From the sequence record OR466728.1: a stretch of DNA of 48,315 nucleotides; one strand, 5' to 3'. How positions within the stretch are numbered: the first letter of the stretch is position 1; every line of letters begins with the position of its first letter. This DNA is from Escherichia phage ES. Both the position numbers and the translations under genes were made by a program. Of the stretch, positions 875-48,315 are shown in pieces. The notes under the pieces were generated by a model. The model was given only the letters and a program-made list of their open reading frames with translations. It searched no databases and had not been told where the DNA came from.

Positions 875-1351
875 ATGGATTGGGGTGATTTCTTCTATCT
901 TAGTGATGATTCCGTTTCTGGTATAAAGTGGAAGGTTAATAAGGGTCGGTCAATGGCTGGTGACGACGCTTTAACATCTGTTGGTAATGGATATTACAAA
1001 GGCAGACTCAACCAGAAGACAACGTACGCCCACAGGGTCGTTTACTTTCTTAACTATGGCGTAATCCCTGATGTTATAGATCATATGGATGGTAATGGGC
1101 TTAACAACTCAATAGAAAACCTAAGGGATGGCACCACAGCCAAGAATATGCAAAACAAGCTATGTAAGGGTTACAGCTACAATAAGAGGGATGACGTTTA
1201 TTATGCTCAGGTAACTACAAATGGGGTGACTAAACATGTAGGTTCTTTTGCAAGCAAGGAATTGGCTATTGCTGCTTACCTAAAGGAGAAGGAATTGCAG
1301 CATGATTTCTATAACAAAGAGAGGAAGATATGCTTGTTTGGGAAAGTATGA
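875..1351 (+). CDS. HNH homing endonuclease with AP2-like DNA-binding domain
   Basis: HNH signature YAHRVVY...IDHMDGNGLNN...NLR, then AP2-like C-terminal segment; RBS AAGGAG. Confidence 0.7.
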   Translation: MDWGDFFYLSDDSVSGIKWKVNKGRSMAGDDALTSVGNGYYKGRLNQKTTYAHRVVYFLNYGVIPDVIDHMDGNGLNNSIENLRDGTTAKNMQNKLCKGYSYNKRDDVYYAQVTTNGVTKHVGSFASKELAIAAYLKEKELQHDFYNKERKICLFGKV

Positions 1352-3373: not shown

Positions 3374-4645
3374 ATGGTAAAAGCAGATTCATACGCCACG
3401 CAATTTCTTGGTGGCTCCAGTGATGGTAGCGAGATTTACGGGCACTTTGGCAACACGTATCTTACACCTCCTTTCGCTGATTCACTGTACGCATCAAACT
3501 CAATTGTACGCCGCATCGTCGACACCATACCGGAGACAGCAATCGCCGCAGGTTTCCATATCGATGGTATTGATAACGAAGGTGAATTCTGGTCCAGGTG
3601 GGATTACCTGAAGGTTAACGAGTCAATCTCTGACGCATGGTCATGGGCGAGGTTATTTGGCGGCTCTGCAATTGTGGCTATCGTTAAGGACAATCGTGCG
3701 CTAACTAGCCCGGTACGTGAAGGCGCGGAACTTGAATCACTTCGCGTTTATGAGCGTAGCCAGGTAAGAGTTCAGACTAAGGAGGAAAACCCTCGCAATG
3801 TGCGATTCGGTAAGCCATTAACGTATCGCATCACGCCAGAAGGTGGCGCCATGTTTTATGATGTGCACTACTCGCGAGTTCACATTATTGATGGCGAGAA
3901 GATTCCTAGTTCATTGCGTCGCGGTAATGACGGGTGGGGTGCTAGCGTTCTGGTTCCTGACCTGCTTGAATCAATCAAGGATTATCAGACGTGTGAGAAA
4001 CTGGCAACTCAGTTATTGCGCCGCAAGCAGCAGGCGGTGTGGAAGGCTAAAGGCCTTGCTGAACTGTGTGACGACGCGGAAGGTTTTGGTGCGGCGAGGT
4101 TGAGGCTTGCCCAGGTTGATGATAACTCTGGCGTTGGTCGCGCGATTGGTATCGACGCTGAAGCTGAAGAGTACAGCGTTCTTAACTCGGATATTGGTGG
4201 GATTGATGGATTCCTCGATAAGAAGTTCGACAGAATTGTTGCTCTGAGCGGTATCCATGAAATCATTCTCAAAGGTCGTAACGTTGGCGGGTTGTCATCA
4301 AGCCAGAATACAGCGCTAGAGACTTTCCACAAGCTAATCGACCGCAAGCGCAATGAGGAGTTACTTCCAGTGCTTGGTTTCTTAATCCCATTCATCACAA
4401 CCGAGCAGGAATGGTCAGTTGAGTTTAACCCTCTAGCTCAGGAATCGAAAAAGGACCGAGCTGAAATACTGAAGAATAACGTTGATTCAATAGCCGCCCT
4501 CATCACTAACGGCGTAATGGATGCTGATGAAGCACGAGATACCTTGCGCGCATTAGCCCCAGAGGTTAAGATTGGTGAGGGTTCGATTGCAAATGAGCAG
4601 CCCGCTCAGGAAGAATCACCAAAAGAGGAGCCTGCAATTGAATAA
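3374..4645 (+). CDS. portal protein (putative)
   Basis: 423 aa from ATG 3374 (RBS GGAG); large ORF directly after terL; call rests on gene order and size. Confidence 0.55.
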   Translation: MVKADSYATQFLGGSSDGSEIYGHFGNTYLTPPFADSLYASNSIVRRIVDTIPETAIAAGFHIDGIDNEGEFWSRWDYLKVNESISDAWSWARLFGGSAIVAIVKDNRALTSPVREGAELESLRVYERSQVRVQTKEENPRNVRFGKPLTYRITPEGGAMFYDVHYSRVHIIDGEKIPSSLRRGNDGWGASVLVPDLLESIKDYQTCEKLATQLLRRKQQAVWKAKGLAELCDDAEGFGAARLRLAQVDDNSGVGRAIGIDAEAEEYSVLNSDIGGIDGFLDKKFDRIVALSGIHEIILKGRNVGGLSSSQNTALETFHKLIDRKRNEELLPVLGFLIPFITTEQEWSVEFNPLAQESKKDRAEILKNNVDSIAALITNGVMDADEARDTLRALAPEVKIGEGSIANEQPAQEESPKEEPAIE

Positions 4646-6337: not shown

Positions 6338-6390
6338 ATTGCCTTTTATCTGATAGAATGGTAATCACCACAAATAGTCAGGAGATTCAA

Positions 6391-7851
6391 ATGGAGTTAG
6401 TTGAAATCGCTTCAAATAGCTGCGAAGGACTTGAGGCAAAAGCGAAGGCTTTAATGCCATCATTTCAGCCTTATGACAGTATTATTCTGGTAGGTGACTT
6501 GCCAGTCAGGTGTTTAATGGCGTCTGGAACAGACCTAAGCATTACTGATATCAAGTTCCTAACTTTCGGTAGCCGAGCAAGGCTAATCACTGAAATTAAC
6601 AAGATGATTGCTGATGGTTGGGAGATTTTCGGCGAGCCAAAGGCTGACGCAAACAGATTTGGCACAATTATGACCAAAGGCTTTCAGGGCGCTAAGGGTA
6701 CGGCTGGTGTCGCTGGCCCGCAAGGTCCGCAGGGCGTTCAGGGTTTGCAGGGTCCAGAAGGCCCGCAAGGTCCAAAAGGTAATGATGGCGATGATGGTTC
6801 TCAAGGTGAGCGAGGACCACAAGGTCCGCAGGGTATCCGTGGCGAGCAAGGCGTTCAAGGTCCGCAGGGCATCCAGGGGCCAATCGGCTTAACTGGTGAT
6901 ACAGGTCAGCAGGGGCCAGCTGGTCCAACTGGTGCTACTGGTCCTCGTGGACCTCAAGGTGTGCAAGGTGAGGCTGGTCCTGCTGGCGCTACAGGTCTGG
7001 AATTTAAAGGCGCATGGGCTCCAGGTATCGAATACAAAGCAAACGACGCAGTGGCTTATAACGGTTCAACATGGTTTGCTGTGACTGGAAATACAGACGA
7101 GACACCAGGGACGGGAACATCATGGCAGGTAATGGCATCACAAGGTTCTCGCGGACCAGCCGGACCAGAAGGCCCGCAAGGTGATGTTGGCCCGCAAGGT
7201 GAGCAAGGAATTCAAGGACCAATCGGAGCAACTGGACCATCTGGACCTCAGGGCGCAAAAGGTGATACAGGAGACACTGGACCAGCAGGACCAGAAGGAC
7301 CACAAGGTTTAACTGGACCAGCCGGACCGCAAGGCATTCAAGGACCAGCTGGTGTTCGAGGTGCTACTGGTGCAACTGGTGTAAACGGAGCTAATGGCGC
7401 CACAGGACCGCAAGGGCCAGCTGGACCAAATGGTGATTCAGGTCTTAATTACACATATCAGAAATGGTCAAACGTAGCAAATGGCGTTGGGTATGTAACA
7501 ATCCCCGGGATGCCTAATACACAAATAGGAGTTAACAGGAATTCTGCCGGAGCAATTGTGTACACTCTCTATAGTACTGGTGGAACCGTTAGGTATCTTG
7601 ATTGGCGCGCTGAGATACCATCATATGATACAAATGCAATAACCACGGCTGCTGGCACGGCGACAACACCAAGCTCTGCTGGTGTAATAGCAACGATGAA
7701 TACCGTTTTATATAATGGGTTAAGATCAGTCAAATTTATAATTAAGGATTGGGGCGCATCAAGGATTGCTGTAATTGAATGTTACCAACACGGAAGGGCT
7801 AACTCAGACGCGAGGCCTGTTACTATCGAGATGCGCTCATTCTCTTACTAA
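6391..7851 (+). CDS. collagen-like (Gly-X-Y) repeat protein
   Basis: two long uninterrupted G-X-Y tracts (about 6679-6997 and 7141-7453) flanked by globular N- and C-terminal domains; RBS CAGGAG. Confidence 0.8.
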
Positions 7852-9263: not shown

Positions 9264-9659
9264 ATGAACGAACAAGCATTGGCCTTTATGAGGTCACTAG
9301 TTCCAGCTTTGCGTAACGTGCAAGATGAAACGCTGGATGTATGGCTTGAACTTGCTAAACTTTACATCTGCACCAGTAAATTTGGTGATGATGCTTACAA
9401 GGCGCTTGCACTGTACACTATGCACATCGCCTTTCTTGATGGTGCGCTTAAGCAGAATGAGTCTTTGGATGATTATGGCAAGAAGGTGACTAGTTACTCC
9501 CTGAGTGGTGAATTTTCCATTAGCTATGAATCAACATCTCAATCGCAGTCAGCACTAACAGCAACTCCGTGGGGCCGACTGTACTGGAATCTTCTACGTA
9601 AGAAAGGTGGTGGATTTGGCTTAATTACGTCCACTGGGCGTGGGTGTGGTTGCCTATGA
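9264..9659 (+). CDS. head-tail connector/adaptor protein (putative)
   Basis: 131 aa from ATG 9264 (RBS GGAGG); position between capsid and tail genes. Confidence 0.35.
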   Translation: MNEQALAFMRSLVPALRNVQDETLDVWLELAKLYICTSKFGDDAYKALALYTMHIAFLDGALKQNESLDDYGKKVTSYSLSGEFSISYESTSQSQSALTATPWGRLYWNLLRKKGGGFGLITSTGRGCGCL

Positions 9660-22833: not shown

Positions 22834-22851
22834 CTTTAGCAATTCGTGCTA
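22834..22851 (-). promoter_or_regulatory. dyad box copy 4 (minus strand TAGCACGAATTGCTAAAG)
   Basis: on minus strand followed by TATGAT at about 22 nt and CATCGAAAC; 62 nt upstream of lipoprotein ATG. Confidence 0.5.
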
Positions 22852-23515: not shown

Positions 23516-24487
23516 ATGACATTCAAAGTTTATTTAAATAACGAACTTAGCAACGAAGCCTATCACGAAGAGCAGGACCACATCTCTGGCTCTTCACTGG
23601 CTGAGATTCTTGCTACCTCACCAGCTAAATGGAAGTTTAAGCAGCGCAATAACTCTAGCGCAGCACTTAAGTTTGGCACACTAAGTCACTGCATGATGCT
23701 AGAGCGCGAGGTGTTTGACTCAACATACATGCGAGCTACTGACTTTGACGAAGTGGAAGGATTGATTACTAGCCAAACGGCTTTATCCGCAGCGCTTAAA
23801 AAAGTTGGAGTTTCAGGCACGTCAGGGAAGGGTTATAACGAGCTTGTAGAGATGATGTATAAGTGTGGTGAGGATTGGCCTGTTAAATGGTTAATTGAGC
23901 AGCAGGAGAGCGCTCATGCGCTAATTAGTGGCAAAGAGCTAGTTGCTGCGAAAGATTACGATAAAGTAATTCAAATGCGAGAGGTTCTAACTAATATTCC
24001 GGCATATGATTCGGTAATTAATTCACCATCAGCGCAGAAAGAACTATCAATATTTGGTGAGATTCTCGGTTGTGGTGTTAAGGTTCGTCTTGACCATGTG
24101 GATGTTGTTGATGGTATTGTCTACATTACTGACTATAAAACTACGTCAGACGCAAGCCCGAGGGGGTTTGGGAAGTCAGCTTATGACCATGGATACCTGT
24201 GCAAGATGGCACTTCAGCGAGATCTGTTTGTGAAAGCCTTTAATGAGAAACGTAAGGTTGTAGTTCGCCTTCTGGCGCAGGAGAAAACAGAGCCTTACTT
24301 ACCAATGAGCTACACTCTTACGGATGAACAGCTTAGAATTGGACGTTTACAATATTGTGAGGCACTGTCAATTTACAAGAATTGCAAGGAAACAAACATG
24401 TGGCCCGGATACTCAAACGGAGCAACGGAACAGGAGTTAATGATACCTGAATGGGTAATTAACAGTTATAAGGATATTATAAAGTGA
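23516..24487 (+). CDS. PD-(D/E)XK (RecB-family) exonuclease, recombination partner
   Basis: 323 aa; nuclease motif ...D...VYITDYKTT; located just upstream of Erf and SSB. Confidence 0.55.
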   Translation: MTFKVYLNNELSNEAYHEEQDHISGSSLAEILATSPAKWKFKQRNNSSAALKFGTLSHCMMLEREVFDSTYMRATDFDEVEGLITSQTALSAALKKVGVSGTSGKGYNELVEMMYKCGEDWPVKWLIEQQESAHALISGKELVAAKDYDKVIQMREVLTNIPAYDSVINSPSAQKELSIFGEILGCGVKVRLDHVDVVDGIVYITDYKTTSDASPRGFGKSAYDHGYLCKMALQRDLFVKAFNEKRKVVVRLLAQEKTEPYLPMSYTLTDEQLRIGRLQYCEALSIYKNCKETNMWPGYSNGATEQELMIPEWVINSYKDIIK

Positions 24488-24968
24488 TTGATAAATTTAA
24501 TGATATCTTTAGATATGATGGTGAAAAGCTGTACTATAAAAACTGGGTAAACGGTAGAAGTAAGTCTCTTGGACTAGAGGCTGGTAGCAAACAGAATGGT
24601 TACTTGAAAGTTACAATTGGCGGCAGAAATTATAAAGTTCATAGAATTATATGGGAAATGGTTAATGGTGAAATACCTGATGGAATGGAATAGATCACAT
24701 AAATCACGTAAAGGATGATAATAGGATTGAGAATCTAAGGCTGGTAACTCACAAGGAAAACTCAAGAAATAGGAAAAAGAGGTCAGATAACTCTTCAGCA
24801 ACACAGGGCGTTTCTCTGCATAAGATTACAAGGAAGTGGCAATCTTATTGCTCTGATAATGATGGAAAAATTATGTACCTTGGATTATTTGAGGATATTA
24901 ATGATGCTATTGATGCTAGGGTTAAGTTCGCCTCACAATGTGACTTCCATGAGAATCATGGTAAATAG
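24484..24968 (+). pseudogene. HNH endonuclease, frameshifted (1-nt deficit near 24689-24691)
   Basis: N-part VHRIIWEMVNGEIPDGME in frame 1 and C-part IDHINHVKDDNRIENLRLVTHKENSRN in frame 0; paralogue of intact 41210-41707. Confidence 0.6.
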
Positions 24969-24983
24969 CAATAATTGCTAAAG
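24966..24983 (+). promoter_or_regulatory. dyad box copy 5 (TAGCAATAATTGCTAAAG)
   Basis: TAG is the stop of the HNH C-terminal frame; TATCAT about 22 nt downstream; ATG of 25039 is 73 nt downstream. Confidence 0.45.
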
Positions 24984-25038
24984 ACAAATCTTATAGGTGG
25001 GGTATCATTACCCCATAGAAACTAAAGAGAGATAGGTA

Positions 25039-25689
25039 ATGAAAACTTCAGAACAAAACAAGCAGGTATTGAAAGCGTTATTTGAGGCTAAATCAAAGTT
25101 TGCAAAGGCTGAAAAGTCAAAGCAGAACTCGCACCTCAAGAACAAGTACGCGACCCTTGAAGACGTTTTGGCGGCTGTAGAGCCAGGACTCGCAGATAGC
25201 GGCCTTGTCATGTTTCAAGGCATGATTGATGATGAAGCCACAACTAGAATTAAGGTTGAAACAACTGTCTATCATGCAGAATCTGGAGAGTGGGTCAGCT
25301 TCCTGACAATCGTCCCAATCAGCAAGCAAGATGCTCAAGGTTATGGGTCATCACTTACATACGCTCGCCGTTACGCAATCACAGCGGCGTTAGGTTTAAG
25401 CCAGGCAGATGATGATGGTCAGTTAGCAGTTAAAGGCATCAACTCATTTAAGAAAGATTTAGCTAAGTGCAACACTCTTGATGACCTGCGAGATGTATAC
25501 AAAGAAGCTAAGCAGTCTCTTGATTCAGCTGGTTGGCTGGTGATTGAACCTCACATTATTGAGCGTAAGGCAGAGATTCAGGCTAATGCAACTAACGGCT
25601 TCAATCCTGCAAAACCTAAACAGGTTGCACAAAAGTCTGTTCAAGAAGAAAAAGTTGAAGTACAATCTCAAGAAATCGACACATTCTAA
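25039..25689 (+). CDS. erf: Erf-family single-strand annealing protein
   Basis: 216 aa; GYGSSLTYARRYAITAALGL core resembles the Erf signature; sits between exonuclease and SSB. Confidence 0.7.
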   Translation: MKTSEQNKQVLKALFEAKSKFAKAEKSKQNSHLKNKYATLEDVLAAVEPGLADSGLVMFQGMIDDEATTRIKVETTVYHAESGEWVSFLTIVPISKQDAQGYGSSLTYARRYAITAALGLSQADDDGQLAVKGINSFKKDLAKCNTLDDLRDVYKEAKQSLDSAGWLVIEPHIIERKAEIQANATNGFNPAKPKQVAQKSVQEEKVEVQSQEIDTF

Positions 25690-26199: not shown

Positions 26200-28732
26200 A
26201 TGCGAGAGAAACTCTTGAATTTGCAAATATCATGGCATCCCTTTGGTTATCAAACTGCACAACAAAGTAATCAGCAAGACTTAACACCATACCAGTTAGT
26301 CCATCAAGGTTGATATGCAGGTTTGCAGTGCCAGATACTGAAGCCTGAGCAACTCCAAATGTATGAACCCACTTACCGCCCTCAGTGAACACTTTCCCTA
26401 AAGATGCAGTACCAAAAATACTGATAGCACCATCTGCACCACCTTGAATCCTGTTTGCAGAGATACCCCAAACGTACCATTTGCCGGAAGTTATATTAAA
26501 GCCACCATTTATCAATTCGTACTGAGCCGCACCAGCCAATTCGTAGTATCCAGATGATTGCGAGTGTATACCCCTTGTATCAGAACCTTCACTTGCCGAC
26601 CCTGTTCCACCAAAGTTGTTCCCACCAGTACCAAAAGGCCTCCTGACTAAAACAGTTCCGGAATCGGGATTAAAAACTCGACCCTTAGTAACATATCCTC
26701 TAACAGATAAGTCAGATGTACCCGTTATCTTGGCTGTCTGTGATACCAGTGACTCAACTATAACGTTTGATGTTGAAGAGCCATTCAGGTATGCATCCTT
26801 AGCAAAAATAATACTGTTCGAATCAAGAGAGAAACTTTGATGCCCATCAGCGTTATCAAACCTGCAACCGTAAGTAACAAGGTTTGAGTTAGACAACTCA
26901 ATGTTATTAATGTAGGAGTGCTCAGCAAAGAAAACAGACGTATCAATAAGCTTCAAAACCCTTGGTAGCTCAGCACCCTCACCTACGTTAATTGCCCCAC
27001 CAGTCGCTATTGCTTCAAACCATACATTTGACAAACCACAAGGCGAGGTCGGGCAATCTCCAGGTTTATTCTTTAACCTTATACCACCTCCAGCAGAGGC
27101 CTCCATTATTGAATCCCTAATCCACCATCCACCAATCCCTCCAGCACCAGGGTTAGTTGCACTACTTGTGCTTGTCGCATCTAGCATTACTGAATATTGA
27201 GAGATTGTATCTGAGTGGTACCCGTATAAAGTGTCCGCTCCTATATGCATTTCGTCATGAGCTTTGGCTCGATACCCGTAATTCGCATTTCTAATACTTA
27301 CGTTTCTGTAGGTATTTCCAATGTTGCCAGCATTTTTCCTTATACCAACATCCAGGTCATTGAAGTAAAGCCTATCCAATACAACCCTTCCAGCATAAGG
27401 GTCATCCGGGAATTGAAAGCCGTTATTACCTTGTATTGCAGTACCTGTAAACTGCAAATCCGATAAATGCTTTTGCCTCCAGTGCGGAACCGATAGCGTT
27501 GAGGTGAGTCCGGTTTCAAAAGGTTTAACACTTATTACGGTATTATATCCAGAGCCTGATATGTTCCTGCCAGCAAAGGAGTAGTTATTACTCTCATAAG
27601 TTCCCGGGCTTATAACTACCGACCCGCCATCGCCAGCGGCTTCTATTGCTGAAGATATTGAGCCGCTATAGCTTGATGTGCTTTTTGAATCTGTATTTAA
27701 AATTGATGACACCTCACCCTTTGAGTAAACATCAAGGTTGGTTCTTGCCACGGACTTATCTGCAATGTCTGAAAGATTCAATGATTTTTGAAACGTCTCG
27801 GATTTTGAGTAAACATCAAGCAACCCCCTAACCCTTGACGCGCTTGATCCACCAGTTGCAGCATCACCGCCAGGCAAGCTTAGTACTTCCCTTACATAAA
27901 AAACCCTAGATCCAGTCGCACCAGAAATTGTGACATCTGCAATCCTAAAATTTGAGTTTGACCCAGTAGACGGAGATAACCTTAATACTTTAGCCGAATT
28001 AACACCCCTAGTTGCAATAACATCAATACAAATAGGAGTTGTTGAAACCGGAAACATTGAACTAATTTCTTTTGGGGTGTTTAACATATTCCCAGGTGTG
28101 CACTGATAACGACCTCCGGAATAAAATTGCATTGTTTGCCAATCTAAAGAGGTAAGTAATGGCGTTGTCGTGCTACCTATTCCGTGATTAGCAAAGTAAG
28201 CAACAGCCGCTGTATTTCCAGCCGCATTTATTGCTTCAACCGTCCTGTTATATGAATTTTGTGCGTTAGTGCTTGCACCAACTGCGGTCGCTGCACTTTC
28301 AGCAGCAGCAATCTGACTAGCTAACGCCTCCGCAGCTCCGGTAGTTGACTGAGTTGCCAGTTGTTCAAAACGAGGCCAATCAAAAGTATCTTGACCAATA
28401 AATTGCAGTAGACTTTCAATAGAAGTCTCTTTTGACTGGTAGTAACGCAATGTTTCCGCAACATCCTGTGCCAACCCCTGAACAGTAATTCCATCATGAG
28501 CAAGAATTGCGTAACCAGTACCAGCGGGAACAGTTTCAGAACTTGGATTATAAACATTAACCTGAGTATCGCTGATGATTTCAGAGATGGTGTAAATTTT
28601 CAGAGGGCTGGTTTTGAAAATGATAGTAGCACCTACACGAATCAGCGTAAGCGGCGCTTTCCATGTTGTACCGACACCAGTTACCTCTCCATTCGCGGCC
28701 AGTGACGCTGTTCCTAAGTCATAAATTGCCAT
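26198..28732 (-). CDS. tail fibre / tailspike-like protein
   Basis: 844 aa from ATG 28732 (RBS GGAGA; ORF-track start 28762 is GTG); Gly/Ser/Thr/Asn-rich repetitive beta-type composition. Confidence 0.5.
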   Translation of the reverse strand: MAIYDLGTASLAANGEVTGVGTTWKAPLTLIRVGATIIFKTSPLKIYTISEIISDTQVNVYNPSSETVPAGTGYAILAHDGITVQGLAQDVAETLRYYQSKETSIESLLQFIGQDTFDWPRFEQLATQSTTGAAEALASQIAAAESAATAVGASTNAQNSYNRTVEAINAAGNTAAVAYFANHGIGSTTTPLLTSLDWQTMQFYSGGRYQCTPGNMLNTPKEISSMFPVSTTPICIDVIATRGVNSAKVLRLSPSTGSNSNFRIADVTISGATGSRVFYVREVLSLPGGDAATGGSSASRVRGLLDVYSKSETFQKSLNLSDIADKSVARTNLDVYSKGEVSSILNTDSKSTSSYSGSISSAIEAAGDGGSVVISPGTYESNNYSFAGRNISGSGYNTVISVKPFETGLTSTLSVPHWRQKHLSDLQFTGTAIQGNNGFQFPDDPYAGRVVLDRLYFNDLDVGIRKNAGNIGNTYRNVSIRNANYGYRAKAHDEMHIGADTLYGYHSDTISQYSVMLDATSTSSATNPGAGGIGGWWIRDSIMEASAGGGIRLKNKPGDCPTSPCGLSNVWFEAIATGGAINVGEGAELPRVLKLIDTSVFFAEHSYINNIELSNSNLVTYGCRFDNADGHQSFSLDSNSIIFAKDAYLNGSSTSNVIVESLVSQTAKITGTSDLSVRGYVTKGRVFNPDSGTVLVRRPFGTGGNNFGGTGSASEGSDTRGIHSQSSGYYELAGAAQYELINGGFNITSGKWYVWGISANRIQGGADGAISIFGTASLGKVFTEGGKWVHTFGVAQASVSGTANLHINLDGLTGMVLSLADYFVVQFDNQRDAMIFANSRVSLA

Positions 28733-28756
28733 TGTGTAAAGTCTCCATTTGTAAAA

Positions 28757-30371: not shown

Positions 30372-33300
30372 ATGCTTCCAGTAGAGCGCTTAGTGGCAAA
30401 CTTTGATCAAGAGAAAATCAAACAGATTCAGAAAGATTACCAGTTTGGAGACATAACTCCTTACGAATTCCAGTGTGTAACATTTGACGCAATTGGTAAG
30501 GCTATTGGTAAGTACGAGGCTCCATTCATCGCAGACCTGTCTGTATCTGCTGGTAAAACAATAATTCTTGCCATGATTGGGAAAAGAATGGAGCAACTTG
30601 GACTTCCTTATATGGTACTGTCTCGCCAGTCAGAGATTATCAGCCAGAACGCAGAGGAACTCCGTAACTTCGGTATCCGTAATAGCGTCTATTGCGCTGG
30701 ACTTAACGTTAAATCAGTTTACTACCCAACCATAGTGGCTAGTGAGGGTACAGCTGCCAATGGCCTGTTTAAGGGGCTTGGTGACTATGTTCCTGCTGTT
30801 ATCGCGATAGATGAGTGCTTAACTGGAGACACGATGATAACCACCGATTCAGGGATGATGAGGATTGATAGCGAAGACCTTATCAATCATAAAATAAAAT
30901 GCATAAACGAAAGCACTGGTGATTACTTCTATCATAAGCCAAAAAGAGTTTTTACTAATGGTGTAAGACATGTATCATCAATTAAATTAGAAAGCGGAGA
31001 GGAAATAAAATGCACGAGTACACACAAACTTTATTCGAACGGCTGCTGGGTAGGAGCGGGAAAACTTCGTATTGGGATGAATCTGTCGCTAGACGGCTCG
31101 CAGGACAAATTTACGAAAAAGCTCCTGCGTGCAAGTGTGGCTGTGGTGAAAAAGTTATGCCGCATTCAAGCAAGGGGTTAGGCGTACTTCTTAAGAACCC
31201 TTTCGATTTCTATTTGGATTACAGAACGGGGCATCATAATTCAACCGTCAACCCATCAATGGAGGTTGATGACTTTTTACATCAAAACATTCTTGCGGCA
31301 ATGGCTGGTGATGGTTGCTTGATTAAAAATACAGAAAAAGGAACGCATAGGCTATCTTGGAATATGGGAAATAAGGAGCACGCACTAAGCAAGGTTGAAA
31401 GGTTTGCAAAACTAAACCCTAGATACAGGGAGAAGAAAAACCCTGGATTTGGCGACAACTGGTTTTGCGTATCAACATCATGTACGAAAGTTCTGGATTC
31501 ATATGCTGATAAGTACGGAAATTCTAAGGATGGTTACGATATTGGAAAGATATGCAGAGAGCTTGATCCAGTTGGTTGGGCTGCTTACTTTGGTGATGAT
31601 GGTCATTGCACTGTAAGCTCAGGGAAGAGGGTTGTAGAAATCCACACCGAATCATTTAGCAGGCGTGAAGTTCAATCAGTAGTTGATGCGCTAATAGCAT
31701 TTATTGCTAATGACGGAGTTAATGTTAGAAGCTATATTGGCGGCAAGAAAAAGAGAGAGCTTTACTCAGTATCAATAACAACGAGGTCGGCACAAGATGA
31801 GTTTTTTAAGAGAATTAGTAAGCACATGGAAAATGGCGTGGAATACAAAATCAAGCAAAATTAAAGACATCTCACCCATTGGCAAGGAACTTGTTTGGGA
31901 TATAGAGATGCCTGAGCACCATAATTTCATTGCTGACGGGGTCGTGGCACATAATTGCCACATGGTGGACCATATGGATATCGTAGAAGCTGAAGAGAAT
32001 GAGGAAACATTCGAGCAGATGAGCACGAAGAAGGGTGAGATGGTCTTTAAGGATGGTGTGAATACCGGGCTTCTTGGCACTGGTCGCGCGCAATACACGT
32101 TAATCATTACCGAAATGAAGCGTCGATGCAAGGAGAAGTACGGTCGCGAACTTCGTATCTTTGGGTTAACTGGTAGCCCGTACCGTAACAACGACCACAT
32201 TGTAGTTAGTAACCCAAATGTCCGTGGATTCTGGCGCAAAACTGTAATGCAAGTGCCAACCAGCTACCTTGTTGACTTGGGGTTCGTTGTTCCTACTGTC
32301 TACGGTGAAGTTGGTGATTTGGGCTACGACCTTAGTGAGTTCACTCCTGATGGAAGTGATGGGGTTAAGGACTTCAGCAAGAAAGAAATGGATGCGATGG
32401 CTGCAAAGATTCACGAAAACCAAACGATGACACAAAAGATAATGGGATTTGCTGCTAGGTTTATGGAAACAAGGAATGCTGCATTGGTAACTTGCGCTGG
32501 CAAACAGCATTGCGAGGAGGCGGCAGCCGCACTTCCAGAAGGTGTTACTTGGGCGATAGTTACCAACTCCACTGGTGATAAGAAGCGTAGAGAGATACTT
32601 GAGAAGGCAGCCAGCGGAGAATATAAGTTCATATTTCAGATTGGTTGCCTCACAACTGGCGTAAACTGCCCCCCGTGGGATACAAGCATTATCCTGAGGA
32701 AGGTTGGTAGCATTACTCTACTCATTCAGTTGCTTGGTCGTGGTATGCGTATCCTTAAGAAGAAGCACAAAGAAGCTGGAATGGTAAAAGATGACCATGT
32801 TGTTCTTGATTTTGCCGGGACGCTTGACGATATGGCAGAACTCTACTTCGACCCAATTATAGAAGAGGTTCAGGACCAGAAGTTTAAGTCATCCAGGAAA
32901 GGGGGTGATGAACCAAGAATTTGCCCAGCATGTTCTTATGAGAATTCTCCTTTCGCACGGCGCTGTAATAATGTGATTGACGGTAAACGATGCGAGCATT
33001 TTTTTCAGTTCCGTCTTTGCGAAGATATTGAGGACCCGCAGACGAAAGTTATCGTTAAGAAAGGTTGCGGAGAGAAAAATGACGTTGCAGCAAAGAACTG
33101 CCGCTGCTGCGGAGAGATGCTGATAGACCCAAATGCAAAGCTATCTGGAAAAATGTATCGGAAAGGGGACTGGTTGAGAGTTTATGACTTCAAGATTGGG
33201 TTGACAAAAAACCAGTCAGGGATCGTTGCTTCATATGAGGTAATGGCTCATAGTGGAGATAAGTTCCGAGCTTATGAAACATTCTTCCCGGAGTCAGACC

Positions 33301-33506
33301 ATCGTGTTTGTTCTGTCAAATGGAAGGCGTTTTGCTCAACTCACATCGAGAACAGGACTGAGGCTTTTAGGATTGGCAGATTGCGTAATGCTAAAATGAT
33401 TATGACAAATGCACATCTTTTCCGTGCGCCGCTAAGGATTACGCACCGCAAGAATCAGAAGTCGCAAGATATTATCGCCAACAAATCATTTACGATGGAG
33501 GATTGA
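30372..33506 (+). CDS. SF2 DExH-box DNA helicase, interrupted by an intein (exteins 30372-30815 and 31956-33506)
   Basis: Walker A SVSAGKT; motif II DE|CH restored on excision; three track ORFs (30372, 31010, 31797) belong to one gene. Confidence 0.75.
30816..31955 (+). mobile_element. intein with LAGLIDADG homing-endonuclease domain (1140 nt, 380 codons)
   Basis: starts CLTGDTMI, block B TSTHKL, LAGLIDADG-like ILAAMAGDGCL and AAYFGDDGHC, ends NFIADGVVAHN before +1 Cys; endonuclease domain is in a different frame. Confidence 0.8.
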
Positions 33507-33507
33507 T

Positions 33508-33927
33508 ATGAAAATCACAGACAAAGGTGATTACCTCGAGTTCTATGGCGGACCGGTGAAGTCATGCCCAAAGGAAGACGATGAACAAATCTTCTGCTCT
33601 GATTGGGTGAAATACAACTATCCGCAGATTGTTTACTGGCACACGATTAACGAAAATAAAAAGAGCATTGGTCAAGCAATAAAAGACCAAGCCAAGGGGC
33701 TTCTCAAAGGTGTGTCAGACTGCTTATTTCTGATACCTGAGTCATTGCGTGGCGGTTATCCATTTGGCGCCATAGAGTTAAAGAGGGCTGGTAAAACGCA
33801 AGCAAGCCCAGTTAGCAATGAGCAAAAGTCATTCCTAAAAAGCGTAAGGGAATCAGGCGGTTTCGCAGCGGTGGCTTATGGAAGAGAGGGTTTTCTTGCG
33901 GCATTCGCAGAGATGATAAGAAAATAG
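33508..33927 (+). CDS. VRR-NUC-like nuclease (putative)
   Basis: 139 aa; ...D...IELKRAGK... PD-(D/E)XK-like core; RBS GGAGG. Confidence 0.45.
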   Translation: MKITDKGDYLEFYGGPVKSCPKEDDEQIFCSDWVKYNYPQIVYWHTINENKKSIGQAIKDQAKGLLKGVSDCLFLIPESLRGGYPFGAIELKRAGKTQASPVSNEQKSFLKSVRESGGFAAVAYGREGFLAAFAEMIRK

Positions 33928-41194: not shown

Positions 41195-41212
41195 CATTAT
41201 CAATTTGTGCTA
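41195..41212 (-). promoter_or_regulatory. dyad box copy 12 (minus strand TAGCACAAATTGATAATG)
   Basis: TAG is the stop of HNH gene 41210-41707; perfect TATAAT 22 nt downstream on minus strand; 56 nt upstream of ATG 41139. Confidence 0.5.
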
Positions 41213-41707
41213 TTTGCCATGATTTGGGTGATAACCCAGCCTCACCTCTGCAACAATTCTTGCCTCACATGCAGAGATAAAGTCATCAAAAAAACCAAGG
41301 TGAACAGTCTTTCCACCACTCTGTATTGAGGCCCTCCACTTACCTGTTCTTTTGTATATGGCGACTCCAGTTACACCACTTTTATTATCAAACCTTAATG
41401 ATGAGTTCATTGAATTCACTTTTTGGGTAACAAGCCTTAGATTTTCAATCCTATTGTCACGCCTATTTCCATTTATGTGGTCTATGAATAGACAATCAGG
41501 TATGTCTCCATTAGTCATCTCCCATATAATTCTGTGAGCCATTGTGTAGCCGATTCCCTTATTGCTAACCCTAACGTACCCGCTTGTTGTAACCTCCGTG
41601 TTAACTGGCTTATTTGCATATTTTGTATTCCAAGATTGAGTTCTATCTGACCTCTCCTTTCTGTACAAAACTGAATCTTTTATATAAAAAATTTCATTCC
41701 AGTTCAT
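41210..41707 (-). CDS. HNH homing endonuclease
   Basis: AHRIIWEMTNGDIPDCLFIDHINGNRRDNRIENLRLVTQKVN; ATG 41707 overlaps upstream stop (ATGA). Confidence 0.7.
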   Translation of the reverse strand: MNWNEIFYIKDSVLYRKERSDRTQSWNTKYANKPVNTEVTTSGYVRVSNKGIGYTMAHRIIWEMTNGDIPDCLFIDHINGNRRDNRIENLRLVTQKVNSMNSSLRFDNKSGVTGVAIYKRTGKWRASIQSGGKTVHLGFFDDFISACEARIVAEVRLGYHPNHGK

Positions 41708-45663: not shown

Positions 45664-45673
45664 GGTTTATAAA

Positions 45674-46096
45674 ATGAAATTAAGCAAATCTCAAAGGGAA
45701 GAGTTGAAGGGCAAGTTCGGTGGTCGCTGCGCTTATTGTGGGTGTGAACTACCTGAGAAAGGCTGGCATGCTGACCATGTTGAACCGGTGCTACGTAAAT
45801 CTGAGGTATGCATGAAGGCAGCGGAGAAAGGAACTTTCAAGCTGAAGGCGACAGGTGAGTTTAATCGACCACAAGCTGATCGAATGGAAAACCTTTACCC
45901 TGCATGTGCTCCATGCAACCTCATGAAAACTTGCTATTCCCTTGAAATGTTCAGGGAACAGGTGTCTCTTCAAGTCGCTCGCGGGCGTAAGAGCAGCATG
46001 AATTTTCGCACGGCAGAGCGGTTCGGCCTCATCTCCATAGTGGAGGATCCAGTTGTTTTCTGGTTTGAGAAGTTTGAGCAAATTAACAAAATCTGA
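45674..46096 (+). CDS. HNH endonuclease (zinc-finger HNH type)
   Basis: CAYCGC...WHADHVEPV...NLYPACAPCN motif arrangement. Confidence 0.65.
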   Translation: MKLSKSQREELKGKFGGRCAYCGCELPEKGWHADHVEPVLRKSEVCMKAAEKGTFKLKATGEFNRPQADRMENLYPACAPCNLMKTCYSLEMFREQVSLQVARGRKSSMNFRTAERFGLISIVEDPVVFWFEKFEQINKI

Positions 46097-48004: not shown

Positions 48005-48160
48005 CTGCTTCCTCTGAGGACTTAGCAGTAACCGACGCGATAAATTCTTGAGTGCAACTTTTGCAACTACGACCCATTAATCGGATTGAAAGCTTAACAT
48101 CCCAGAGCTGCATTTTTTATCTTCCCGCTCTGATTGCTATAGTTTTGAATTTCTCTTTCA
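48005..48160. other. 156-nt fold-back: reverse complement of the end-to-start junction (probable assembly artefact)
   Basis: 48005-48082 is the exact reverse complement of 1-78; 48083-48160 is the reverse complement of 47929-48004 plus CC. Confidence 0.7.

Positions 48161-48315
<155 letters not shown>

Follow-up and report, generated by a model that had tools for sequence, protein, structure and literature searches.

A probable, recently inactivated HNH homing-endonuclease gene between the exonuclease and erf genes of Escherichia phage ES, in a genome that also encodes a putative split-intein helicase

In the genome of Escherichia phage ES (OR466728.1), of which we analysed one stretch of 48,315 nucleotides (hereafter the window), the plus-strand interval 24484-24968 lies between the genes for a RecE-like exonuclease and the Erf single-strand annealing protein. 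This interval is most probably a recently inactivated, free-standing homing-endonuclease gene of the HNH type (HNH_3 in Pfam, PHROG 99, I-HmuI-like), which would encode 161 amino acids with one base restored.

Three-frame translation divides the locus into two parts, and there is no uninterrupted full-length frame. Frame 0 opens at a GTG at 24484, which overlaps the exonuclease stop codon (GTGA) and has an AAGGA sequence 8 nt upstream; it reads MIDKFNDIF...HRIIWEMVNGEIPDGME and ends after 69 codons at a TAG (24691-24693), giving an N-terminal frame of 24484-24693 on the plus strand. The C-terminal part (24690-24968, plus strand; IDHINH...NLRLVTHKEN...FHENHGK) lies in the -1 frame, in the register of 24486, which is open from 24681 as WNG-IDHINHVKDDNRIENLRLVTHKEN...FHENHGK and closes with a TAG at 24966-24968; this frame contains no start codon before 24873, and no further stop in the 92 codons 3′ of the lesion. 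Alignment with the HNH genes of phages TR2 and Opt-719, and with a metagenomic orthologue on a contig which we call L008, shows a single base to be absent at GGAATGGA-ATAGATCAC, at window positions 24689-24691. The codons here are ATG-GA-ATA-GAT in the window, ATG-TTT-ATT-GAT in TR2, ATG-CAA-ATT-GAC in Opt-719 and ATG-GAG-ATA-GAT in L008 (where the sequence at this position is GGGATGGAGATAGATCAT), so that the lesion site on the plus strand, GAA followed by TAG (24688-24693), is one base short of the GA(A/G)-ATA of intact homologues; the deposited sequence reads GGAATAG, and the intact-frame form would be GGAAATAG. Our translation and alignment thus agree with the sequence-only reading of this DNA, which had reported a 1-nt deficit at 24689-24691 splitting the gene into two frames. 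That reading had also placed the deficit in an A-run, which is not the case: the run is AA only (AAA or AGA if intact), and there is no homopolymer tract.

Adding one base at the lesion produces a 161-amino-acid protein with the family consensus IPDGMEIDHINH. This repaired product matches Pfam HNH_3 at 9e-24 (83.3 bits against a cut-off of 24.8 bits) and PHROG 99 at 1e-58 (residues 3-161), and it aligns with I-HmuI (PDB 1U3E) across the catalytic core (residues 39-110, E 2.6e-4). The predicted catalytic residues (the His in IDH, the Asn in DNRIENL and the Asn in KEN) align with those of I-HmuI and of other family members and are all encoded within IDHINHVKDDNRIENLRLVTHKEN, in the downstream frame only. 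Because the break falls one codon ahead of the active-site Asp-His, the 69-amino-acid product has no nuclease motif, and by its sequence the 69-codon frame yields no nuclease. The downstream frame carries, in addition to the HNH catalytic core, a putative AP2-like DNA-binding region; the motif GV..W.A.....LG.F is conserved there among homologues, many of which have a precomputed PF00847 annotation, and an AP2-like C-terminal domain is plausible for the HNH_3 family.

The surroundings of the gene are those of an insertion. Upstream lies the exonuclease gene (PDDEXK/DUF3799; 23516-24487, plus strand) and downstream lies erf (25039-25689, plus strand). The relatives used to define the empty site were phage phiA2-1 and L098, L099 and L101, which are metagenome or assembly contigs with the same unusual helicase as phage ES (described below). 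In all four the exonuclease gene is followed by erf after 70 nt. Homology to phiA2-1, L098 and L099 ends at about 24466 and resumes at 24963, which (from blastn blocks and alignment) gives the insertion an extent of about 496 nt, 24467-24962. The insert replaces about 14 nt together with the last exonuclease codons, which read ...EWVINSYKDIIK before the stop in ES and ...EWVSKQYQELLK before the stop in the relatives. TR2 and Opt-719 have different, intact HNH genes at this site, and phage BEK2 has a small unrelated open reading frame (ORF), so that presence or absence of the gene is polymorphic among otherwise syntenic relatives.

The two flanks of the insert differ. The last eight or so codons of the exonuclease, and its 3′ half, are more diverged from the relatives than the remainder of the gene: over its final ~570 nt (23900-24466) identity to L098, L099 and L101 is 70-87%, down from 97-100%, and on the erf side it is back to 97-99% within 100 nt. 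The diverged 3′ half of the exonuclease gene may be a one-sided co-conversion tract.

At its 3′ end the HNH stop recreates the AAATAG that opens a conserved intergenic cassette 5′ of erf (24966-25015, plus strand), which consists of TAGCAATAATTGCTAAA and a hairpin at 24998-25015; the cassette TAG doubles as the HNH stop in ES and as the exonuclease stop in the empty-site relatives. The palindromic motif TAGCACGAATTGCTAAA occurs 19 times in the window against 0.76 matches expected, at the stop codons of upstream genes (for example at 22835 on the minus strand, 24966, 28757, 33925, 34179, 37747, 42154 on the minus strand, and 45200), and is typically followed by about 20 nt, a TATAGT-like hexamer, cATCGAAAC, a ribosome-binding site and the next ATG. 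By its composition and placement the TAGCACGAATTGCTAAA unit is a putative repeated promoter- or operator-like cassette, framing most early and middle genes, and with about 17 cassette copies many genes in this phage group end at one. We considered whether TAGCACGAATTGCTAAA might be the homing target of the family, as the HNH stop fuses to it in AN_ECEAS (a second record of the ES phage, introduced below), TR2, Opt-719 and L008, and rejected this as a general rule, since the stop of none of 34 more distant family genes has the motif.

The gene appears to have been inactivated only lately. Its sole close orthologue in a search of 5.8 billion proteins is that of L008, a 787-bp ENA metagenome contig with the same locus upstream of erf, at 71% protein and about 75% DNA identity; it is intact at the position of the ES lesion but has its own in-frame TGA at codon ~39. 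No intact near-identical copy was found in IMG/VR by an exact-pattern scan, protein-guided scans of IMG/VR and metagenome contigs gave nothing closer than about 50% identity, and exact look-ups of the 69-amino-acid fragment and of the exonuclease protein returned no further contigs. Between AN_ECEAS and L008 the ratio of nonsynonymous to synonymous differences per site (pN/pS) is ~0.21 upstream and ~0.22 downstream of the lesion, with pN at ~0.18 and synonymous sites saturated. Because pN/pS is low on both sides while synonymous sites are saturated, both lesions look recent, and the gene would have been under constraint for most of the divergence of the two copies.

Nor is the ES copy alone in being broken. 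Among 75 non-redundant HNH_3 family copies in the loci that we fetched, 70 are intact and five (excluding the ES copy) are disrupted, by stops or frameshifts at scattered positions: L008 (1-456; stop at about residue 39), L066 (~2428-2917; frameshift at about residue 36), L045 (~2495-2970; 1-nt deletion at about residue 65), L101 (7745-8276, minus strand; GAA to TAA at about residue 62, the intact L098 copy being 99% identical to it) and L046 (~2426-2897; frameshift at about residue 108). Broken copies turn up regularly in the HNH_3 family, and there is nothing unusual in the decay of a homing-endonuclease gene; judged by the orthologue and paralogues that were inactivated independently, roughly 7% of copies are broken.

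We suggest the following history for the locus. In the lineage of ES and AN_ECEAS an HNH gene would have inserted itself between exonuclease and erf, taking the place of the final few codons of the exonuclease, with its own end falling exactly at the promoter-like cassette in front of erf. By analogy with characterised phage homing endonucleases, the intact nuclease would cleave close to the exo/erf junction in a co-infecting relative whose allele is empty, and recombinational repair would then copy the HNH gene, with some of the exonuclease flank, into that genome. With no empty targets left, selection on the nuclease would lapse and the gene would decay; one base would then have been lost just upstream of the catalytic Asp-His, with translation ending after 69 residues. 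The ES copy would represent the first step of decay in such a cycle of invasion, fixation and degeneration.

Several points weigh against this history. The downstream frame is perfectly preserved, as it would also look if the missing base were a sequencing artefact; the pattern of flank divergence is not unique, the genome being mosaic elsewhere also; and the AP2-like DNA-binding domain goes undetected by Pfam in the 24484 copy. It may also be that a consensus error is common to both GenBank records of this phage, for example if one read set was assembled twice.

The last point belongs to the rival explanation that has to be taken most seriously, which we nevertheless regard as unlikely: that the frameshift is a sequencing or assembly artefact and the phage has an intact, active 161-amino-acid HNH homing endonuclease. 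The fully open and conserved downstream frame, the exact consensus IPDGMEIDHINH restored by a single inserted base and the low pN/pS on both sides of the lesion are all as this explanation would have them. The assembly, moreover, is not flawless, since the last ~310 nt of the window (48006-48315) repeat nearby sequence in inverted orientation and then run into ~140 nt of poly-G interrupted by one A; this 3′ end is an assembly or read artefact, not phage sequence. Two-colour Illumina sequencing, which seldom makes indel errors, typically produces such long poly-G runs.

Comparison with the second record bears on the same question. A megablast search with 23516-25689 gave one 100% match, to Escherichia phage AN_ECEAS (PP944860.1, 48,081 bp; Drexlerviridae, Braunvirinae), of which the ES window is a rotated version with four single-nucleotide polymorphisms (at 9636, 27989, 40431 and 40983). 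The two are separately deposited records of essentially one phage, which could stem from the same data, but the identical deficit is present in both in spite of the four polymorphisms and of their different ends and annotation. Furthermore, the lesion site is no homopolymer; disrupted HNH_3 copies are common in other genomes (the five of 75 above); and a tblastn scan of the window with stop-to-stop ORFs of phiA2-1 and TR2 revealed no frameshift in any other gene. That scan did flag apparent frame switches at about 28735, 33511, 38030, 42910 and 45260, and indel errors throughout the genome were rejected as their cause: those at 28735 and 45260, on inspection, come from alignments that continue across conserved non-coding cassettes or intergenic DNA, with no frameshift, and those at 33511, 38030 and 42910 were dismissed, on the hit table alone, as matches that involve overlapping ORFs or small stop-to-stop ORFs running into non-coding DNA. 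The three-frame helicase described below, first suspected to reflect more indel errors, proved to be a conserved natural arrangement. Because the lesion is in both records, lies in AA and not in a homopolymer, sits in data with an Illumina-type poly-G run and is accompanied by no other frameshifted gene, we consider that it is probably real.

If the lesion is real, a little full-length nuclease might still be made by a low-efficiency -1 slip at the GAA before the TAG, which would limit the toxicity of the enzyme. If the P-site tRNA slipped back from GAA (24688-24690) onto GGA and ATA were decoded next, the product would read exactly ...GME-IDHINH..., and the shift window adjoins a stop codon; stop codons can promote ribosomal slippage. 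Such recoding is nonetheless very improbable, as none of the hallmarks of programmed -1 frameshifting (heptamer, downstream structure, conservation) is present at the lesion: no slippery heptamer (X XXY YYZ) occurs, the predicted fold of the next 100 nt is less stable than that of shuffled controls (z = +1.42), and the break is not conserved, with L008 at the lesion position and all 70 intact family copies in a single frame and the other disrupted copies having different lesions at other positions.

Least credible of all is the idea that the 69-amino-acid product is kept as useful, for instance by binding DNA and so protecting the exo/erf junction against related nucleases, which would make the truncation adaptive and not neutral decay: three of the six lesions (AN_ECEAS at residue 69, L045 at ~65 and L101 at ~62) do fall just upstream of the catalytic His, but a lesion hotspot there was rejected because the clustering of all six (at about residues 36, 39, 62, 65, 69 and 108) is not significant (rough scan-statistic p ~0.1-0.15), the N-terminal part is not preferentially conserved (pN/pS 0.21 upstream and 0.22 downstream) and the expected DNA-binding region of the family is C-terminal (AP2-like), not N-terminal.

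The decaying gene at 24484-24968 is one of four HNH-type genes that had been proposed for this window, and profile searches match all four. The other three are intact: an HNH_3 gene at 875-1351 (plus strand; HNH_3 3.9e-11, PHROG 99) between the small and large terminase genes; an HNH_3 gene at 41210-41707 (minus strand; HNH_3 7.7e-21, PHROG 99) adjoining a DUF3987 gene; and a gene at 45674-46096 (plus strand) whose earlier description as a zinc-finger HNH is upheld by a PF01844 match (23 bits against a 21.4-bit cut-off), by its CxxC...CxxC pattern and by PHROG 2118 (7e-55), and which is called 'DNA repair ATPase' in GenBank. For the 875-1351 gene, described beforehand as HNH plus an AP2-like domain, the HNH part stands and the AP2 part has no Pfam match; in the 41210 copy Pfam AP2 reaches E 0.022. 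Ten more ORFs of the window yielded no further nuclease genes.

The 24484 gene had also been called a clear paralogue of the 41210 gene. The two are of the same family (42% identical, E 1e-38), but each is about as close (~50% identity) to genes of other phages, and because of this we read them as separate acquisitions and not as a recent duplication within the genome. The synteny comparison found that the HNH genes are insertions, as had been proposed, each locus being vacant, or having a different occupant, in one or more close relatives and none of the genes being core: in addition to the exo/erf site, the 875-1351 site is empty in IMM-001 and phiA2-1 and has another HNH gene in TR2, TR3 and Rao1; about 100 relatives match the DUF3987 gene without the adjoining 41210 HNH gene (at megablast sensitivity); and the 45674-46096 gene is absent from TR2 and phiA2-1, with homology to TR2 breaking at 45665 and resuming at 46074. 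The suggestion that the set is expanded did not survive. By tblastn the HNH_3 family has matches at 3474 places in 2413 phage records, a single genome having as many as six, and at other loci TR2 has five and phiA2-1 three HNH or endonuclease genes; four HNH genes per genome are normal for this phage family.

A further homing-type element of the window is found in its DEAH-box (ResIII/Helicase_C) helicase (30372-33506, plus strand), which is distributed over three ORFs together with the Pfam Intein_splicing and LAGLIDADG_2 matches. The first ORF (30372-31181) encodes the N-terminal part of the helicase (N-extein, 148 amino acids) and then the N-terminal intein half (IntN), which starts from Cys149 at 30816, reads CLTGDT...KCTSTHKL...KKLC and ends in a stop codon. 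The second (31157-31864) is a free-standing, double-motif LAGLIDADG_2 homing-endonuclease gene of 235 amino acids. The third (31797-33506), which reads M...MAWNTKSS...VWDIEMPEHHNFIADGVVAHN and then CHMVDH, encodes the C-terminal intein half (IntC, 53 amino acids, ...VVAHN to 31955) and the C-extein with the rest of the helicase, its first Cys at 31956. Relative to the two helicase ORFs the LAGLIDADG gene is read in the -1 frame, with overlaps of 25 and 68 nt, and the helicase frame contains stops between 31181 and 31797. The insert, 30816-31955, lies inside the DEAH box (AIDE/C...N/CHMVDH, with slashes at its ends, against AIDEAHMVDH in phiA2-1), and the predicted junction peptide of the spliced helicase is ...VIAIDECHMVDHMDIVEAEE....

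When IntN and IntC are joined in silico, the result is a complete HINT/Intein_splicing domain (50 bits, with the cut-off at 35.8 bits) that aligns at both ends to the Spl DnaX mini-intein 7CFV (E 5e-15) and carries Cys1, TxxH, the terminal HN and Cys+1. Six divergent loci preserve the CLTGDT..., KCTSTHKL, VWDIEMPEHHNF and VVAHN/C segments (intein blocks A, B, F and G). The split itself is equally conserved: Pectobacterium phage Abuela is annotated with the same three helicase ORFs, four related Pectobacterium phages have a matching annotation ('hypothetical protein', then 'homing endonuclease'), and the 0/-1/0 layout of frames was seen in every relative found (Abuela, L098, L099, L101, L102, L103, L104 and L105). 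The 90% cluster of ORF 30372-31181 has at least 10 full-length members, all of 269 amino acids, and a query joining IntN, endonuclease and IntC hit 39 protein clusters, with coverage of 59% at most (16 matched the endonuclease only, 19 N-extein and IntN only, and 4 IntC and C-extein only). Layout and catalytic residues recur on unrelated backbones (L102, a Plesiomonas assembly; L103 and L104; and L105). Sequencing error was rejected as the source of the three frames, the layout being conserved in many independent genomes, and so was programmed frameshifting, which would require a second, +1 shift as well and for which the AAAAAG at the end of IntN (GTG AAA AAG, 31145-31153) lacks conservation in Abuela and L105.

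On these features the element is predicted to be a naturally split intein, or fractured gene, with an intervening free-standing LAGLIDADG gene, and from the conserved catalytic residues and the position inside the DEAH box we infer trans-splicing to an intact helicase. We consider it likely that this DEAH-box replication helicase is made as two polypeptides joined by the split intein, in a family that is apparently only split and is found in E. coli and Pectobacterium phages on several unrelated backbones. The sequence-only reading had counted an intein among at least five homing-type elements; the count of five stands, and the intein is not contiguous but spread over three ORFs.

The GenBank annotation of these regions has several slips. 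The HNH locus is annotated in PP944860.1 only as a 69-amino-acid 'putative HNH endonuclease' coding sequence, the LAGLIDADG gene is unannotated in AN_ECEAS (a gap at record positions 26821-27473), and the N-terminal part of the helicase is called 'minor tail protein' in the phage ES record. Elsewhere in the window, 6358-7851 encodes a 497-amino-acid head-module protein with collagen triple-helix repeats (7e-33) and a weak CBM_5_12 match, called 'putative tail fiber protein' in GenBank; the phiA2-1 protein at the corresponding position (by gene order, unaligned) has about 190 amino acids. We found no paper that mentions phage AN_ECEAS, and none that describes the helicase element; the paper on the Ymer-genus phages mentions neither an intein nor a homing endonuclease.

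The HNH finding bears mainly on annotation, in that the locus holds a gene of full length, disrupted and with its insertion boundaries defined, as against a 69-amino-acid coding sequence; it is also a clean example of early decay, with one lesion in a gene the remainder of which still looks selected. The helicase may matter more than the HNH gene, as this coliphage is easy to grow, so that its conserved split intein lends itself to a direct test of trans-splicing, and the intein may show how contiguous inteins become split ones. If our reading is right, its intein halves are a new natural trans-splicing pair, and the element is a LAGLIDADG-type variant of the fractured-gene arrangement so far seen with GIY-YIG and Vsr-like nucleases.

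Fractured genes, in which split inteins have an intervening free-standing endonuclease gene, were described by Dassa et al. 2009 (PMC2677866); the endonucleases there are GIY-YIG or Vsr-like, and the text makes no mention of LAGLIDADG. The ES helicase resembles them in being a phage DNA-metabolism gene broken at the endonuclease-insertion point of its intein into N-extein-IntN and IntC-C-extein ORFs. The endonuclease also overlaps the downstream ORF at its 3′ end, by 62-74 nt at most loci, by 26 nt in L104 and not at all, as called, in L103, against 6-69 bp in PMC2677866. It differs in its double-motif LAGLIDADG_2 gene, in its DEAH-box helicase host, split inside motif II, and in being present in cultured phages (ES/AN_ECEAS and the Pectobacterium Ymer-like phages). 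The joined halves share the signature residues of the HINT fold with the Spl DnaX mini-intein 7CFV and with the DnaB, RecA and DnaE inteins; 7CFV is a contiguous mini-intein (from its PDB name), whereas the ES halves are on separate ORFs.

For the HNH gene, the closest known systems are the HNH_3 genes of other Drexlerviridae (TR2 UXQ90365.1, Opt-719 UGO52666.1 and Tls EndY), which belong to the same Pfam and PHROG family. Like the ES product, the enzymes of these T1-like phages (often HNH-AP2) have about 150-165 amino acids, with M-x-W-N-D-I-F at the N-terminal and FHENHGK at the C-terminal end, and as in ES their genes are sporadic, with several copies per genome. The TR2 and Opt-719 genes have the same intergenic position between exonuclease and Erf. 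The ES copy is about 50% identical to genes of this type and differs from them in being broken by the 1-nt deletion; it also starts at a GTG overlapping the exonuclease stop, whereas the TR2 copy starts after its own spacer.

More distantly, I-HmuI of Bacillus phage SPO1 is the only solved structure detectable by sequence for the ES product, and the match spans the strand-turn-His-Asn core, including the ...DH...N...N motif that the ES frameshift cuts off. The I-HmuI gene lies in a group I intron, and its product nicks a single strand; the ES gene is free-standing, has a C-terminal region other than that of I-HmuI, and its nuclease role is predicted. In being an intergenic nuclease gene between conserved genes, with presence/absence polymorphism and a diverged flank, it is also reminiscent of the free-standing Seg and Mob proteins of T4-type phages, which are known for intronless homing and marker exclusion. 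The Seg genes of T4 are of the GIY-YIG type, and the ES case, in contrast to the T4-type homing endonucleases, is known from sequence alone. The ES gene can likewise be set beside the published finding (PMC10448857) that nuclease genes sit at boundaries of genetic exchange between phages.

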